From Vicinamibacterales bacterium (GTDB lineage Bacteria; Acidobacteriota; Vicinamibacteria; Vicinamibacterales; 2-12-FULL-66-21): a stretch of DNA of 35,615 nt. Shown in pieces: positions 3,055 through 19,371 of this stretch. The stretch is taken from the NCBI GenBank assembly GCA_050745085.1, contig JBOGJB010000140.1:1-35615 (forward strand), in the 5' to 3' direction. Positions within the stretch are counted from its first letter, which is position 1, and the number at the start of each line of letters is the position of its first letter. The notes under the pieces are model-generated. The model saw nothing but the letters and a program-made list of their open reading frames with translations, searched no databases and was not told where the DNA came from. Made by a program: the position numbers and the translations under genes.

Positions 3055-3854
3055 TCGTCTGCAAGTCGCCGGCGGAGCTGCGGCGGATGCGGGCGGCGAA
3101 CCAGGTCGTGGCGGAGATCCTCGCCGAGCTGGCCGCGATGACCGCCCCCGGCGTGACGACCGCCGACCTGGATCAGTTCGCCGAGGCGCGGGTGCGCGCC
3201 GCGGGGGCGGCGCCCGCGTTCAAGGGCTACCGCGGGTACCCGGCGACGCTGTGCGCGTCGGTGAACGACGAGGTGGTGCACGGCATCCCTTCGAAGCGGA
3301 AGCTGAACGAGGGAGACATCCTGTCACTCGACATGGGGGTGCTCCTCGACGGGTTTTACGGCGACTCGGCGGTGACGGTCGGCGTCGGGGGCATCTCCGC
3401 CGACGCGGGCGAGCTCCTGCGGGTCACCGAGGAGGCGCTGCACAAGGCGATCGATCGGGTGCAGGTCGGCGGGCGTCTTTCGGACATCGGGAACGCCATC
3501 CAGCGCTGGGTCGAGGCGCACGGGTTCTCGGTCGTGCGCGAGTTCGTCGGGCACGGGATCGGCGCGTCGCTCCATGAGGAGCCGCAGATCCCGAACTACG
3601 GCGAGCCGGGACGCGGCCCACGGCTGGTCGAGGGCATGGTGCTCGCGATCGAACCGATGGTGAATGCAGGCCGTCCGGCGGTGAAGATTCTGTCGGACGG
3701 ATGGACCGCGGTGACGCGCGACGGCAGCCTCTCGGCGCACTTCGAGCACACGGTGGCGGTCACCTCCGACGGACCGCTAGTGCTCACGGTGCCGAACAGC
3801 GCCGAGCCGCCCGCCCGCCGCGCCCCGGGGGCGCGCCCGGAGGCGAGGCCGTAG
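3051..3854 (+). CDS. map: Type I methionine aminopeptidase
   Basis: The internal ATG at 3051 overlaps the adk stop (ATGA). The sequence begins MIVCKSPAELRRMRAANQVV and has MetAP metal-ligand contexts (LDGFYGDSA, VGHGIG, LAIEP, HFEHTV). The upstream part of the 342-aa track ORF is Arg/Gly-rich, overlaps adk and is rejected. Confidence 0.92.
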   Translation: MIVCKSPAELRRMRAANQVVAEILAELAAMTAPGVTTADLDQFAEARVRAAGAAPAFKGYRGYPATLCASVNDEVVHGIPSKRKLNEGDILSLDMGVLLDGFYGDSAVTVGVGGISADAGELLRVTEEALHKAIDRVQVGGRLSDIGNAIQRWVEAHGFSVVREFVGHGIGASLHEEPQIPNYGEPGRGPRLVEGMVLAIEPMVNAGRPAVKILSDGWTAVTRDGSLSAHFEHTVAVTSDGPLVLTVPNSAEPPARRAPGARPEARP

Positions 3855-3863
3855 GGCGCCCGG

Positions 3864-4103
3864 GTGGACGACGACGTCAGGCCGGGCCGCTCGCGAGACC
3901 AGCAATCGACGGGTGTGGTGCGAGAAGTCCTGCCGCACGCGCTGTATCGCGTCGAGCTGGGCAACGGGCACGTCGTCGTGGCACACGCGGCAAGCGGCCG
4001 CGGTCGCAACTTCGTTCGGATTCTCGTCGGCGACTCGGTCTGCGTGGAGTTGTCGCCGGTGGATTTGAACAGAGGACGGATTACGAGGCGGGTAAACAGC
4101 TAA
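3864..4103 (+). CDS. infA: Translation initiation factor IF-1
   Basis: 79-aa [26 protein letters not shown]...[27 protein letters not shown] matches the IF-1 S1 fold. It has a GTG start; the exact start is uncertain. Confidence 0.88.
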
Positions 4104-4208
4104 TGCCGAATGCCGAATGCCAAATGCCGAACGCGTCGCGCTTGCGACGGCGGAACGACCGTTGCGAGCGCAGTCGACTTCGGCCTTCGGCATTGGGCAT
4201 TCGGCATT
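4102..4208 (+). repeat. Heptamer-repeat hairpin B (AATGCCG family): left arm 4102-4136, structured core 4137-4174, right arm 4175-4208 (CGGCATT units)
   Basis: The left arm reads AATGCCG AATGCCG AATGCCA AATGCCG AACGCGT, starting inside the infA TAA. The right arm reads CGGCCTT CGGCATT GGGCATT CGGCATT. An inner 13-bp stem (4138-4150 with 4159-4171) contains two G-U pairs. Confidence 0.93.
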
Positions 4209-4224
4209 GATAGGGGACGAGAGC

Positions 4225-4338
4225 GTGAAGGTCAGGGCATCGGTGAGGCGCATCTGCGCGAAGTGCAAGGTCGTCCGACGCCGCGGCGTGGTCCGGGTGA
4301 TCTGTACGAATCAGAAACACAAGCAGAGACAGGGTTGA
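4225..4338 (+). CDS. rpmJ: 50S ribosomal protein L36
   Basis: GTG at 4225 is preceded by [42 protein letters not shown] is full-length L36 with its Cys/His zinc knuckle. The 73-aa track ORF simply starts at an ATG inside repeat B. Confidence 0.9.
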
Positions 4339-4342
4339 TCCA

Positions 4343-4380
4343 TTCGGGATTGTGGATTGCGGATGTGGATTCGCGGGATG
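4343..4380 (+). repeat. Degenerate heptamer tract (GGATTGT GGATTGC GGATGT GGATTCGCG GGATG) in the rpmJ-rpsM spacer
   Basis: GGAT recurs at 4347, 4354, 4361, 4367 and 4376 (spacings 7, 7, 6, 9). No inverted partner is present. Confidence 0.5.
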
Positions 4381-4408
4381 AGCCCCCAGTCCCTCCAGAG
4401 GAACAGAG

Positions 4409-4783
4409 ATGGCACGTATAGCAGGCGTTGATCTTCCGCGGACCAAGCGGGTCGAGATCGGGCTCACCTACATCTACGGCATCGGGCGGAAGCGCTCGAA
4501 CGACATCCTGTCGGCCGCCGGCGTCAGCCCGGACGTCCGGGTCAAGGACCTGTCGGAAGAGGACGTCCGGAAGATCAGCCGCGTGATCGAGGAGGAAGGG
4601 CGCGTCGAGGGCGACCTCCGCAAGGAAGTCTCGCTCCACATCAAGCGGCTGATGGAGATCGGCAGCTATCGGGGCGGCCGTCACCGGCGCAACCTGCCAG
4701 TCCGCGGCCAGCGCACGCGCACGAACGCGCGCACGCGGAAGGGCCCGCGCAAGGGCGCGATCACGAAGAAGAAGGTAATTTAG
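4409..4783 (+). CDS. rpsM: 30S ribosomal protein S13
   Basis: 124-aa ORF beginning [27 protein letters not shown], with GAGGAA upstream of the ATG. Confidence 0.96.
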
Positions 4784-4811
4784 CAGTGACTGCTGATGGT
4801 GGATTGCTGAT
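4784..4811 (+). repeat. Short heptamer tract CAGTGAC TGCTGAT GGTGGAT TGCTGAT in the rpsM-rpsK spacer
   Basis: TGCTGAT occurs at 4791-4797 and 4805-4811, exactly 14 nt apart. The intervening unit shares the NNNTGAN pattern. Confidence 0.45.
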
Positions 4812-4813
4812 TT

Positions 4814-5263
4814 ATGGCCAAGACTGAACCGAAGGCGGAGCAGCCAGAGGGCGCGACGCCCGAAGGCGGAAAAAAACCGAAGAAGAAGACGTTCAAGAAA
4901 CGCGGCGAGAAGCGCATCGTCCACCACGGGGTGGCGAACGTCCGCGCGTCGTTCAACAACACGACGATCACGATTACCGACCCTGAGGGGCACGTGATCG
5001 CCTGGTCGAGCGCCGGCGCGGTCGGCTTCAAGGGGTCGCGCAAGGGGACGCCGTTCGCGGCGACGCAGGCGGCGATGAACGCCGGCAACGCCGCGAAGAC
5101 GTACGGCATGCGCACGCTCGAGGTGCGGGTGAAGGGGCCGGGCGCGGGCCGCGAGTCAGCGATCCGCGCGCTGCAGACCGTCGGGCTCGACGTCAAGTCG
5201 ATCCGCGACGTCACGCCGATCCCGCACAACGGGTGCCGGCCGCCGAAGCGACGAAGGGTTTGA
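4814..5263 (+). CDS. rpsK: 30S ribosomal protein S11 (with ~20-aa Lys/Pro/Glu-rich N-terminal extension)
   Basis: 149-aa [35 protein letters not shown]...[13 protein letters not shown] is typical S11. Confidence 0.95.
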
Positions 5264-5299
5264 CGATGACTGTGATGGTGATAGAGGTAGAGATACAGA

Positions 5300-5929
5300 A
5301 TGGCTAGGTATATCGGTCCCGTGTGTCGCCTGTGCCGCCGCGAAGGCATGAAGCTCTTCCTGAAGGGGGAGCGCTGCTACACCGAGAAGTGCGCGATCGA
5401 GAAGCGCAACATCCCGCCGGGGCAGCACGGTAAGATGCGCAAGGCGAAGCTCCTCGGCTACGGCCTGCAGCTCCGCGAGAAACAGAAGGTCAAGCGCATC
5501 TACGGCGTGCTCGAGAACCAGTTCCGCCGCTACTTCGAGGAGGCGGAACGGCAGCGCGGCATCACCGGTGAAACGCTGCTCCAGATGCTGGAGCGCCGGC
5601 TCGACAACGTGATCTACCGCCTCGGACTTGCGACCTCGCGGCCGCAGGCGCGGCAGCTCGTGCGCCACGGCCACTTCATGGTCAACGGCAAGAAGGTGGA
5701 CGTGCCGTCCTTCTCCGTCCGCGCCGGGGACGTCGTGACCGTGCGGGGGACGAGCGCCGAGAACACGGCGATCCAGCACGCGATGGAAGAGGTCAAGGGA
5801 CGCGGCATCCCCCAATGGCTCGAGTTCGACGCCGCGAAGCTGAGTGGGCGCATCGCATCGCTCCCCACGCGCGAGCAGATCAACCTGCCCGTGCAGGAGC
5901 AACTGATAGTGGAGCTGTACTCGAAATAG
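5300..5929 (+). CDS. rpsD: 30S ribosomal protein S4
   Basis: 209-aa ORF beginning [31 protein letters not shown] (zinc-ribbon S4 N-terminus), followed by an S4 RNA-binding domain. Confidence 0.96.
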
Positions 5930-5932
5930 AGA

Positions 5933-6033
5933 AATGCCGAATGCCGAACGCCGAAAGGGTCTGCACTCGCGACCGTCGGCGACTGTCGACGAGCGTAGAC
6001 GTTTTCGGCATTCGGTATTCGGCATTCGGCATT
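5933..6033 (+). repeat. Heptamer-repeat hairpin C (AATGCCG family): left arm 5933-5960, core, right arm 6006-6033
   Basis: The left arm reads AATGCCG AATGCCG AACGCCG AAAGGGT. The right arm reads CGGCATT CGGTATT CGGCATT CGGCATT. The core shares GCGAC...GTCGAC strings with the core of element B. The element starts 4 nt after the rpsD TAG. Confidence 0.92.
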
Positions 6034-6063
6034 GACGGAAGACAAACGAAAGGAATCACACCC

Positions 6064-7044
6064 ATGCTGTGGAAAGGTTTCCAGCGGCCGAAGCGGCTGG
6101 AGTTCGAGCGTGAGACGCTTACCGACAGGTTCGGCCGGTTCTACGCGCAGCCGTTTGAGCGCGGGTTCGGAACGACGATCGGGAACGCCCTGCGCCGCGT
6201 GCTGCTGTCCTCGGTCGAGGGAGCGGCGGTCACAGCGGTCAAGATCGAGGGGGTCCTCCACGAGTTCTCCCCGATCCCAGGCGTCGTCGAGGACGCGACC
6301 GACATCATCCTCAACCTGAAGCAGATCCCGCTGAAAATGCACGGCGATCACACGAAGACGCTGTACCTCAAAGCGGAGAAGCCGGGCGTCGTGCGCGCGC
6401 GGGACATCGAGACCGACGCCGACGTCGAGATCCTCGAGCCGGACGCGCACATCGCGACCGTGTCAGAGCACGGCAAGCTGCAGATGGAGATGCGCGTCAA
6501 GCGCGGGCGCGGCTACGTCGCAGCCGACAAGAACTTCGACGAGGACCTCGGCATCGGCTGGATTCCGATCGACTCGGTGCACTCGCCGATCAAGAAGGTC
6601 AACTACCTCGTCGAGGCGGCGCGCCTCGGACAGACCACCGACTACGACAAGCTGACCGTGGACGTCTGGACCAACGGCGCCGTGACGCCGCGTGACGCCG
6701 TGTCGCTCGCGGCCAAGCTGATCCGCGATCACCTGACGATCTTCGTCAACCTCGAGGAAGCGCTCGAGTCGGCGCCGGAGGCGGCCTCCGACACGCCCCG
6801 CGCGGCGCTCAACGAGAACCTCGACAAGAGCGTCGAAGAGCTGGAGCTTTCCGTCCGGTCCTACAACTGCCTCAAGAACGCGAACATCCGGACGATCCGC
6901 GAGCTGGTGCAGAAGACCGAAGGGGAGATGCTCAAGACGAAGAACTTCGGCCGCAAGTCACTGAACGAGATTAAGGAGATCCTGTCGACCATGGGTCTCA
7001 GCCTCGGGATGAGATTGGATCAACCGACTCACGCTCAGGAGTAA
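6064..7044 (+). CDS. rpoA: DNA-directed RNA polymerase subunit alpha
   Basis: ATG at 6064 is preceded by AAAGGAA. The sequence begins [17 protein letters not shown], has an N-terminal assembly domain, and has a C-terminal domain with [23 protein letters not shown] (the HhH of the alpha-CTD). The upstream part of the 409-aa track ORF runs through repeat C and is rejected. Confidence 0.95.
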
Positions 7045-7050
7045 ACGGTA

Positions 7051-7245
7051 AGTTCTTAGTGCTTGGTTCTTAGTGCTTAGTGTGATTTCCCTCGCGACTG
7101 ACTTCGCTGTTGTGGGTCTCGTGTCTTTGCTTGTTTCTTCTGCGTGCGCTGGCGGTGAACGCGACGCGTGGACAGCGAAGATCAATCACCGAAGACGCTG
7201 GCGAGCGAGGTCAGACTAAGCACTAAGAACTAAGCACTAAGAACT
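7051..7245 (+). repeat. Heptamer-repeat hairpin D: 31-bp stem (7051-7081 with 7215-7245) enclosing a 133-nt lower-GC core
   Basis: The left arm is AGTTCTT AGTGCTT GGTTCTT AGTGCTT AGT. The right arm is ACT AAGCACT AAGAACT AAGCACT AAGAACT. I checked it base by base and found 30 Watson-Crick pairs plus one G-U (7065 with 7231). The core has internal pairings CTTCGCTGT/ACAGCGAAG and CCTCGC/GCGAGG. Confidence 0.93.
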
Positions 7246-7258
7246 GTGAGGATCGAGA

Positions 7259-7867
7259 ATGCGTCACGGACGAGCACACAGAAAGCTGGGGCGGGTCGCC
7301 GACCATCGCGTCGCGATGCTCCGGAACCAGGCGCAGGACCTCCTGCGCCACGAGCGGATCCGGACGACGGTGCCGCGCGCGAAGGAGTTGCGGCCGTTCG
7401 TCGAGCGGATCATCACGATCGCCAAGCGAAGCCTCGCGGACGGCGGGATGACCCGCGGCGTCACCGCGCGGCGGCTCGTCGCCCGCGACATCCACGACCG
7501 CGCCGTCGTCGTCAAGCTGTTCGACACGATCGCGCCGCGGTTCGCGGAGCGGCCGGGCGGTTATACGCGGCTCCTCCGCCTCGGCCATCGCCGCGGCGAC
7601 GACGCCGAGGTCGCGCAGATCGAGCTCATCGGGAGCGAGTACAACCCAAGTGCGGCGACCGGGAAGACCGCGGGCGAAGGCGCGGCCCCCGCGAAGACGA
7701 AGGGGGTCGGCGGGCGTCTGCGCGCCGCCGCCGACCGGCTACGCGGCAAGAAGGCCGAGGCGCAGGCGGCGAAGTCCGAAGGTCGGAGGGACGCGGAGCC
7801 CAAGCAGGGCAAGACGCGGGCCACGGCCAAAGGTCCCAAGAAGGCCCGGACGCGCGACGACGAGTAG
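7259..7867 (+). CDS. rplQ: 50S ribosomal protein L17 with ~77-aa Lys/Ala/Gly-rich C-terminal tail
   Basis: 202-aa ORF beginning [53 protein letters not shown] (L17), with GAGGAT upstream. Confidence 0.95.
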
Positions 7868-16730: not shown

Positions 16731-16735
16731 ACGCA

Positions 16736-16803
16736 AGTACGAAGCTCGAAGTACGAAGGCTGAAGTTGGTTCACTTCAGCCTTCGAACTTCGTCCTTCGT
16801 ACT
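16736..16803. repeat. Heptamer-repeat hairpin E between convergent genes: arms 16736-16766 and 16773-16803, 6-nt loop
   Basis: The left arm is AGTACGA AGCTCGA AGTACGA AGGCTGA AGT. 28 of 31 positions pair with the right arm. The right arm encodes the last 10 codons of the minus-strand CRTAC1 gene, and the stop codon (16771-16773) spans the loop-arm junction. Confidence 0.9.
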
Positions 16804-18483: not shown

Positions 18484-19361
18484 CGCGATTGCCCGTCTGG
18501 ACCGCCGGGCGTTCTGAGGGTCTTCACCCGCTCTTCCATCTCACGCAACTTCTGTTGATACAGGTCCACGTGCCTACGCGCCGCTTCGGCGTCTCCTAGG
18601 CGGGCGTACGCGAGGCTGAGCTGATAGTGGATCTTCGGCGAGGCGACATCGATCGCGGCGGCCGCGAGCAGTGCGTCCCGCGCTTCGGCGTACTCTCCCC
18701 TCTTGATCAAGACCATACCGAGGACCAGATGGGCCGTGGCGTGCCCGCCCGCCTTCGCGAGCGCGCGTCGAGCGTGCCCGTCGGCCGCGTCGAGTTCGCC
18801 GAGTCCTTCTTCCGCCTCCGCCAGCGCGGCCGTGGCGTCGACGCTGTCGGGGTCGCGCTCGAGCGCACGCGCGAGAGAGGACTTCGCTTCGGCATACTGC
18901 TTGCGGTTGTTCAGGGCCAGCCCCAGCGCCGTGAGCGTCAGGGCCTTGTCGGGTTCGAGGCGATCCGCTTCACCGAGCGAGTCGACGGCCGCTTCCATGT
19001 CGCCCGCCTGCATCAGCGCCACGCCGCGCAGATAGTGATACTCCCCGACCGTTGGGCAGATGCGCGTGAGCGCGTCGAGTGCCACGAGCGCCAGGATGGG
19101 CCTGTGCGCCGCCAAAGACACCTGGGCGTAGGCACTCAGCACTTCTTCCGAATTCGGTGCGATCGCGCGCGCCTTGCGAAGCGAGTCGAGAGCCGCCGAC
19201 GCGTTCCCTTCCTGGACCTGCGTCCTCGCGAGCTGCATCAGCGCCCGCACCGACTGCGGACTTGCAGACTGGGCCTCCGCACCGGCCGCGGCGACCAGAA
19301 TGGCTCCCAGCACCATGGCACCCAGCACCACCTTCGGCATTCGGCATTCGGCCTTCGGCAT
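18480..19361 (-). CDS. Secreted tetratricopeptide (TPR) repeat protein
   Basis: The start is taken at ATG 19361 (MPKAECRMPKVVLGAMVLGAILVAAAGAEAQS, a signal peptide). ATG at 19340 is an equally plausible start. Both ATGs are supplied by AATGCCG repeat units. The longer track ORF would overlap the upstream gene. Confidence 0.8.
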   Translation of the reverse strand: MPKAECRMPKVVLGAMVLGAILVAAAGAEAQSASPQSVRALMQLARTQVQEGNASAALDSLRKARAIAPNSEEVLSAYAQVSLAAHRPILALVALDALTRICPTVGEYHYLRGVALMQAGDMEAAVDSLGEADRLEPDKALTLTALGLALNNRKQYAEAKSSLARALERDPDSVDATAALAEAEEGLGELDAADGHARRALAKAGGHATAHLVLGMVLIKRGEYAEARDALLAAAAIDVASPKIHYQLSLAYARLGDAEAARRHVDLYQQKLREMEERVKTLRTPGGPDGQSR

Positions 19362-19371
19362 TGGACTAAGG
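19331..19371. repeat. Half-element F: single array CGGCATT CGGCATT CGGCCTT CGGCATT followed by GGACTAAGG, no inverted partner
   Basis: The units sit at 19335-19362 and use the same heptamer as elements B and C. The adjacent 9-mer GGACTAAGG (19363-19371) matches the element A unit and contains the stop codon of the upstream TPR gene. Confidence 0.85.

Follow-up and report, generated by a model that had tools for sequence, protein, structure and literature searches.

The spacers infA|rpmJ and rpsD|rpoA in the ribosomal-protein operon of a metagenome-assembled genome (MAG) of a soil bacterium of the Vicinamibacterales each contain a hairpin element of about 100 nt, here called elements B and C, with arms built from tandem copies of the heptamer AATGCCG. 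Both elements are probably gene-less derivatives, most likely produced by internal deletion in the manner of MITEs (miniature inverted-repeat transposable elements), of a selfish cassette of ~530 nt that carries a PF05635 gene and is of the same type as the gene-bearing intervening sequences (IVSs) of 23S rRNA. The assembly, hereafter G000, consists of 606 contigs and 4.06 Mb with 67.6% G+C and is 82% complete; the window analyzed here is its entire 35.6-kb contig G000:C140. The relatives of its RpoA place the genome in the Acidobacteriota, order Vicinamibacterales. Four genomes of the same genus (G001–G004) were used as congeners for site comparison, and one genome flagged as unpublished (G062) was excluded from all counts. 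Arrays of tandem heptamers, among them the cyanobacterial short tandemly repeated repetitive (STRR) sequences and the arrays of Xanthomonas and Geobacter, have been on record for bacterial genomes since 1990 but have no accepted origin or function. What is new here is a set of gene-less copies at more than 100 loci that share their arms and a subterminal repeat with a gene-bearing copy, together with further filled and empty sites and a deletion that occurred in place.

Element B (107 nt, positions 4102–4208) lies between infA and rpmJ, and element C (101 nt, positions 5933–6033) lies between rpsD and rpoA; neither is assigned a strand. The 5′ arm of B has 4.3 AATGCCG units (4102–4131), the first two bases of which finish the TAA stop codon of infA (4101–4103). 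The 47-nt core that follows (4132–4178) has a diverged inner inverted repeat, CGCGTCGCGCTTGCGAC ... GTTGCGAGCGCAGTCGAC, flanking a short loop, and the 3′ arm of 4.3 TTCGGCA units (4179–4208) is the complement of the 5′ arm. Element C begins 3 nt past the rpsD stop codon with a 5′ arm of 3.3 AATGCCG units (5933–5955), continues with a 48-nt core (5956–6003) in which AGGGTCTGCACTCGCGAC ... GTCGACGAGCGTAGAC, near the family consensus, is accompanied by a loop, and ends in a 3′ arm of 4.3 TTCGGCA units (6004–6033) that is one unit longer than its partner, the extra unit being unpaired in the fold. The predicted RNA folds have energies of −76.1 kcal/mol for B (z −9.3) and −67.2 kcal/mol for C (z −8.6). 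Across the window, there are 14 matches to (AATGCCG)2 with at most one mismatch, compared with 0.02 expected from shuffled sequence.

An earlier, sequence-only reading of the window had noted that B and C share the heptamer in both arms and are similar in size and layout, and had regarded them as diverged copies of one element; all of this was confirmed at the coordinates given above. It had also pointed to strings shared by the two cores. The similarity of the cores is real, as their global alignment has a z-score of 5.4 and none of 5000 mononucleotide shuffles reached its score, but the quoted strings correspond to each other in position only in part: in B, CAGTCGAC forms the 3′ end of the inner repeat, whereas CTGTCGAC in C lies where the loop meets the 3′ repeat. 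The core that is in fact shared is AGGGACTGCGCTCGCGAC ... GTCGCGAGCGCAGTCCC. The third, one-armed array of the window, previously placed at 19335–19362, is likewise real and lies on the minus strand at 19329–19362 according to the family hidden Markov model (HMM) or 19333–19362 according to Tandem Repeats Finder (TRF). This solo arm is an arm-only remnant of four AATGCCG-type units without an inner repeat or a partner, and showed no structure in folding (z 0.35). It is located between two genes for tetratricopeptide repeat (TPR) proteins, and its last unit offers a possible ATG for the downstream one. The family HMM recovered the solo arm with an E-value of 1.4e-5, and B and C with E-values of 8.2e-24 and 1.3e-22, the latter two being partly circular because both elements were among the copies used to build the model.

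This HMM, made from 32 copies including B and C, was run on the whole assembly and identified 125 AATGCCG loci in 4.06 Mb, 48 of full length and 77 partial, in agreement with the high copy number that had been predicted. In nearly all of the partial copies, an arm and the 5′ half of the inner repeat give way to unique sequence, and contig ends account for just 6 of them. A matching arm occurs within 1.5 kb of only 13 out of 74 one-armed copies, and therefore most of these are genuinely one-armed. The general layout is (AATGCCG)4-AA-AGGGACTGCGCTCGCGAC-[loop]-GTCGCGAGCGCAGTCCC-(NGGCATT)4, often with GTC...GAC directly outside. The subterminal inner repeat is a non-repetitive sequence of 17 nt, GGGACTGCGCTCGCGAC, mirrored by GTCGCGAGCGCAGTCCC, and is common to all AATGCCG pairs, with a variable loop between the two halves. 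Exactly four units are present in 35 of the 48 5′ arms, and the order of unit variants is common to the copies (e.g., AATGCCC or AAGGCCG as the third unit). Because the consensus core and the order of unit variants are shared, a common origin rather than independent slippage is indicated, and the AATGCCG copies constitute, as judged from these sequences, a dispersed family of common descent. The full copies are found between co-directional (19), convergent (8), and divergent (3) genes, and twelve overlap called gene ends. Every copy inspected, B and C included, either lies between protein genes or adjoins the end of one, and none of them is in rRNA.

The AATGCCG family is embedded in a genome-wide excess of period-7 repeats. 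Exact runs of three or more copies number 145 for period 7, 21 for period 6, and 2 for period 8, and TRF reported 1002 period-7 rows in 193 unit classes, the commonest of which is AATGCCG (106). The copy number of period-7 arrays has its mode at 4.0–4.5, with a few arrays enlarged to 10–25 units, whereas the arrays of periods 6, 8, and 9 become steadily fewer above the detection threshold. Inverted array pairs number 154 in the genome and have a median gap of 44 nt, and polarity is fixed for each unit class, AATGCCG being the 5′ arm in 20 out of 20 pairs. G000 has at least ten families of hairpins with heptamer arms, and AATGCCG is the largest of them. One of the others, the AGTKCTT family, has the inner repeat GACTKCRCTCGMSAC in common with it, a motif with 129 occurrences in the genome compared with 29 in a reversed-genome control. 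A member of the AGTKCTT family lies in the window between rpoA and the gene that follows (7051–7245); its arms consist of 14-mers (AGTTCTT/AGTGCTT), and its 132-nt core bears the inner repeat GACTTCGCTCGCGAC...GTCGCGAGCGAAGTC. Since this inner repeat is that of the AATGCCG family, one subterminal module serves two arm types.

The gene-bearing form of the family is found on contig C192, where two facing one-armed copies situated 422 nt apart form a single 530-nt element (G000:C192:6079-6608) with four AATGCCG units per side and the inner repeat of the family. The element encloses an open reading frame (ORF) of 101 amino acids belonging to PF05635 (23S-rRNA intervening-sequence protein, E 2.9e-14), which is encoded on the minus strand at G000:C192:6197-6499 and is similar to PDB entry 2RLD, a deposition of five chains. 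In G001, G002, and G004, the orthologous site is empty, a stop codon being followed by 5–13 bases and then by the next ATG. G003 does have this element at the orthologous site, although ~350 nt are missing from the ORF region; four left units, a segment with the 3′ end of the ORF, and three right units are retained. The G003 copy is evidently a gene-less derivative caught in place. Within the short elements, tblastn identified no PF05635 remnants.

The association of PF05635 with heptamer arms extends beyond AATGCCG. Eight PF05635 genes were identified in G000, seven of them between matching inverted arrays and the eighth with an array on one side only. The units of the seven genes are AGGAGGC, GAATCCA, GGTTCAG, TAGGCAC, AGTTTCG, AATGCCG, and GGTTCCTG, and each matches a hairpin family elsewhere in the genome. 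A ninth, degenerate copy, found by tblastn, is located at G000:C301:1810-2383 between AAGTACG and CTTCGTA arrays. As a background, period-7 arrays of any kind occur on both sides of 93 out of 2439 genes. For other bacteria, flanking arrays were counted when they were matching and inverted with a period of 7, or sometimes 6, 8, or 9. Such arrays flank 16 of the 29 PF05635 genes that were best hits in other Vicinamibacterales (17 of 30 listed loci when G000's own is included), 13 of 18 further PF05635 genes in G001, G004, G011, G015, and G035, and 15 of 27 PF05635 genes across the phylum (39–70% G+C), where 24 of the 27 have at least one array. Arrays number 2.95 per kb up to 350 nt from a PF05635 gene, compared with 0.48 per kb farther out.

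Homologues of PF05635 on plasmids are mostly in Nostocales. All eight plasmid genes inspected have flanking 7–8-nt arrays, mostly inverted, and their hosts are Nostoc, Trichormus, Calothrix, Picosynechococcus, Pseudanabaena, Gemmatirosa (Gemmatimonadota), and Azospirillum. These comparisons indicate that the layout of gene plus arms recurs across phyla. Several of the plasmid PF05635 genes are wedged within operons. At plasmid loci L199 (Picosynechococcus) and L202 (Pseudanabaena), four-helix-bundle genes with heptamer or octamer arms interrupt CRISPR-Cas operons, at the junctions cas10|cmr3 and cas6|cas4. Between genera, closer proteins carry closer heptamers (rho −0.16, permutation p < 0.001): units are within one mismatch in 36% of protein pairs with at least 60% identity, as opposed to 1% of pairs below 40%. 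In G011, it is the gene with AATGCYN arms whose product is most closely related to the C192 protein. We read the correlation between protein and unit as co-inheritance of the gene and its arms, and not as proof of specificity.

Comparison with relatives provides the filled and empty sites. Matches of the (AATGCCG)3 type number 201 in G000, 6–23 in the four congeners, and 50, 87, and 30 in three scattered relatives; two relatives have 1–2 isolated matches and the other 31 have none, and reversed-pattern controls gave 0. At the infA|rpmJ junction, G001 and G004 have no spacer, the stop and start codons overlapping as ATGA, and G003 has an unrelated hairpin insert, a GC-rich dispersed repeat, so that B is lineage-specific. 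Element B alters the C-terminus of IF-1 relative to the congeners, supplies the TAA stop codon, and uncouples infA from rpmJ. AATGCCG arrays were observed to be without stop codons in all six frames (G000:C452:700-840 and window positions 4095–4105), and therefore the upstream gene either reads into the element, as at C452, or acquires a stop codon at the junction, as does infA with its TAA.

The rpsD|rpoA spacer in G001, G003, and G004 is a different structured (hairpin) sequence common to all three, from which it follows that C replaced or displaced this sequence. Four further copies on contigs C304 and C452 correspond to congener sites that are empty or differently occupied, the alternative occupants being an ACTCAGA-type or AAGGACN-type hairpin, a GC-rich hairpin element, or a repetitive extragenic palindromic (REP) sequence of the type associated with REP-associated tyrosine transposases (RAYTs). 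The empty sites that the sequence-only reading had suggested looking for in relatives thus exist within the genus, alongside differently occupied ones. In sum, the aligned loci indicate lineage-specific presence at insertion sites, in short spacers beside stop codons. The GC-rich dispersed repeat is 125–155 nt long and ends in the hairpin GGCGCTGGGGGTGGGGCCCCAGCGC (G000:C452:8156-8310 and G000:C304:6836-6958; loci L090 and L089). It occurs in G000 as ~20 near-full copies (~100 nt or longer) with many fragments, and at least 8 copies with 81–99% identity are present in each of G001 and G004. This repeat is not built of heptamers, and Rfam gave no match for it.

Because their family has a long form bearing PF05635, the short hairpins appear to be derived, in the manner of MITEs, from a cassette of the IVS type. 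The full selfish cassette would consist of a PF05635 four-helix-bundle gene between AATGCCG inverted termini, and loss of the internal ORF would yield the gene-less hairpins that have multiplied. By analogy with rRNA IVSs, the transcribed stem of ~45 bp may be a substrate for RNase III, the gene for which (rnc) is present in G000. The element would then be tolerated only where cleavage of the transcript is harmless, that is, between cistrons, and the transcript at the infA|rpmJ and rpsD|rpoA junctions might be cut, or might be capped by a stable hairpin. More speculatively, a pentameric PF05635 protein may recognize 4–5 tandem units of its own arms.

Several observations weigh against this reconstruction. 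The elements were not seen to transpose, nor could they be tied to any recombinase, nuclease, or reverse transcriptase; for a retro-mobility model in particular, RVT_1 was not found in the 82%-complete assembly. PF05635, a small helical bundle that is not known to have catalytic activity, is an unlikely candidate for the enzyme. Because a single intact gene-bearing AATGCCG copy was found, the link between parent and progeny rests on the shared termini and one in-place deletion, and the large families AGTKCTT, GGTCCTT, and TAGGGAC are without a gene-bearing copy in this fragmented assembly. The share of 55–70% of PF05635 genes with arms may reflect lineage and best-hit sampling. The junctions carry 10–17 extra bases and no target duplication, and the insertion boundaries are consequently not exactly definable. 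Finally, predicted stability was no different for the sense than for the antisense strand in 26 co-directional contexts (p = 0.68), a comparison that gives no sign of selection at the RNA level.

The alternative that survives best, although we consider it unlikely, is that the arrays are cis elements selected by the host, such as sites bound by a global regulator or an RNA-binding protein, mRNA stabilizers, or processing signals, to which the link with PF05635 would be secondary. The Geobacter arrays have been proposed as global-regulator sites (PMC2700814), and a preferred array length of ~4 units would be compatible with such a role. Moreover, the same ribosomal-operon spacers are repeatedly occupied: at 68 Acidobacteriota rpoA loci, period-7 arrays were present at 29 for infA|rpmJ, 18 for rpsD|rpoA, and 33 for rpoA|rplQ compared with 0 of 68 inside the rpoA coding region, these being presumptive zones assigned by distance from rpoA. 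The units at those loci are never AATGCCG. However, the occupant of a spacer varies between congeners, some of which have none, and the copies show no strand bias relative to transcription and overlap or replace gene ends. The covariation-supported structure that the sequence-only reading had suggested deriving did not materialize, since compensatory double changes are all but absent from the stem and variable positions mostly break pairs; there is therefore no support for a selected RNA structure. Rfam gave no match up to E = 1 in window positions 3700–7400, and positions 3800–6300 contain neither a terminator-like site nor a promoter consensus, the arms ending in GGCATT and then GAC with no terminator-like tail. 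These traits are signs of a selfish element rather than of a selected RNA.

The same reading had proposed an REP- or MITE-like proliferating element, of which the dispersed, MITE-like character stands; the elements resemble neither an REP served by a RAYT nor the MITE of a DDE transposon. In the first of these models, the hairpins would be REP doublets (REPINs) spread by a RAYT, a Y1/HUH transposase that acts on single-stranded hairpins. The elements resemble REPs in being extragenic and palindromic, in occurring in tens to hundreds of copies without target duplication, and in having one-armed singlets beside inverted doublets, and G000 does encode one Y1_Tnp gene. This sole gene (G000:C395:5510-6013, in an assembly that is 82% complete) is flanked by the hairpin GTGGTACGAGGCTTTAGCCTCGT and not by AATGCCG arms, half of an AATGCCG element is not a small palindrome as an REP would be, and PF05635 is the only ORF found within AATGCCG termini. 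We accordingly regard an REP/REPIN origin as improbable. The Y1_Tnp gene itself (L099) is IS200-like and of the RAYT type, with two direct copies and one inverted copy of GTGGTACGAGGCTTTAGCCTCGT around it, and looks like a classical REP/RAYT system. The GTGGTACGAGGCTTTAGCCTCGT REP also occurs in a G001 spacer where G000 holds an AATGCCG element.

A classical MITE derived from an insertion sequence (IS) with a DDE transposase encoded elsewhere is still harder to accept. Terminal inverted repeats, small size, lack of an ORF, many copies, and the existence of a longer related copy would all suit this model. The target-site duplications that the sequence-only reading had suggested looking for were not found, as 36 of 44 copies lack any direct repeat at their flanks and the repeat length is not consistent; the longer copy encodes only a 101-amino-acid four-helix-bundle protein; and where one-armed copies face each other on a contig they enclose no transposase-like gene, the one pair checked by Pfam bracketing the ordinary genes pyrD/pyrF. 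A transposon bounded by one-armed copies, considered as a candidate in its own right, was rejected for this reason. Lastly, independent products of slippage or template switching in each spacer, without a common origin, have almost nothing to commend them beyond the ascription of heptanucleotide repeats to polymerase slippage (cited in PMC4679880) and the few arrays of 10–25 units, and are refuted for the AATGCCG family by a non-repetitive inner core conserved in 48 full and ~60 half copies, by the shared order of unit variants, and by the excess of the core motif over the reversed genome.

Derivation from a PF05635 cassette thus being the preferred account of B and C, a broader proposal may be put forward tentatively, and we hold it to be possible rather than probable. 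The cassettes with heptamer arms may form a mobile-element class of their own, in which the pentameric protein, the only one encoded, reads its own termini, one unit per subunit, and promotes the spread or retention of gene-bearing and gene-less copies, with host RNase III removing the element from transcripts, so that it would act as an intervening sequence in mRNA and not just in rRNA; the heptamers of STRR sequences, Xanthomonas, Geobacter, and Acidobacteriota would then have a common origin. STRR-type heptamers, the PF05635 family, and rRNA IVSs are three unexplained things, and G000 offers unusually direct evidence that they belong together. If so, heptamer hairpins in operon spacers would be relics of selfish elements and not regulatory sites, which would affect the annotation of spacers, here inside the ribosomal-protein/rpoA operon. 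The value of the case lies in explaining the heptamer repeats of bacteria, and it makes a protein family without an assigned function accessible to experiment.

The genes adjoining the two elements, all on the plus strand and identified by Pfam, are infA (IF-1, 3864–4103), rpmJ (L36, 4225–4338, with a GTG start 16 nt past element B), rpsD (S4, 5300–5929, with its stop codon at 5927–5929, the 5′ neighbor of element C), and rpoA (6064–7044, its 3′ neighbor). A 7-nt periodicity is also evident in the short spacers rpmJ|rpsM (4342–4376), rpsM|rpsK (4787–4813), and rpsK|rpsD (5266–5295), with units of the GGATTGT and GCTGATG types; arrays of the AATGCTG/GGATTGT type occur at another spacer in G001 and G004. 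Elsewhere in the window, a hairpin at 815–978, ahead of a large gene (993–2384), has 4.4 GTCCTTG units on the left, a 21-nt core (ggtgcac...), and 16 AAGGACT units on the right. Six more inverted pairs of this class are listed genome-wide, and no gene-bearing copy of it was found in the assembly. An AAGTACG/CTTCGTA hairpin with the core gctgaagt...acttcagc lies between convergent genes at 16735–16803; the degenerate PF05635 copy on C301 has the arms of this family. In a search of sequencing runs, at most 38% of sampled window words were present in any run.

Heptamer arrays have been described in several other systems. In Xanthomonas, there are 70–75 convergent pairs of GGGAATC arrays, for which no link to mobile elements was stated (Rehm et al., 2015; PMC4692102). 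Geobacter metallireducens has families of arrays with four or five heptanucleotides in tandem, often paired on opposite strands and interpreted as putative global-regulator sites (Aklujkar et al., 2009; PMC2700814). Heptamer repeats, including TAACTGA of Beggiatoa, have been reviewed (MacGregor, 2015; PMC4679880), and in many bacteria no class of long simple repeat is commoner than that of heptanucleotides, which has been attributed to slippage of the polymerase (cited in PMC4679880). The 23S intervening sequence of Coxiella burnetii, located in helix 45, is a 428-nt selfish element with an S23p ORF and an inverted-repeat stem that RNase III cuts at the first of three tandem GACAGAT heptamers, the number of which varies among strains; S23p of Xanthomonas is cited as a homopentamer (Warrier et al., 2016; PMC4990558). 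No paper tying dispersed heptamer arrays to PF05635 was found in a literature search conducted mostly outside subscription journals.

Compared with these systems, the AATGCCG elements share with REPINs and REP-based bacterial interspersed mosaic elements (REP-BIMEs) the form of ~100-nt extragenic hairpins with two inverted halves around a variable spacer, the lack of target duplication, and the existence of singlets and doublets in within-genome populations. Their halves, however, are tandem heptamers plus a 17-nt repeat and not a short imperfect palindrome, and the only Y1 transposase in G000 is flanked by a different REP. Like the MITEs Correia and Nezha, they are short, gene-less, and amplified, have terminal inverted repeats, and are internal-deletion kin of a longer coding copy, but they show no target-site duplication and their coding copy is without a recognizable transposase. 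The arrays of STRR sequences, Xanthomonas, Geobacter, and Beggiatoa are likewise intergenic, with ~3–5 heptamers often in convergent stem-loop pairs, tens to hundreds per genome, and genome-specific units; the AATGCCG family shows the period-7 excess of this class. It differs from them in its conserved non-repetitive subterminal repeat and its gene-bearing parent copy, and the papers on those arrays give no origin. The closest likeness in gene content is to the 23S rRNA IVSs of Coxiella and Leptospira, as the long AATGCCG copy has a PF05635/S23p ORF in an inverted-repeat stem with tandem heptamers beside it, and both are viewed as selfish and are sporadically distributed. In contrast to those IVSs, which lie in helix 25 or 45 of the rRNA, the AATGCCG elements occupy spacers between protein genes, each of their two arms is an entire array of about four heptamers, and the gene-less form exceeds 100 copies. 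Since B and C have no ORF of their own, they are best described as derivatives of the IVS type rather than as full members of it.

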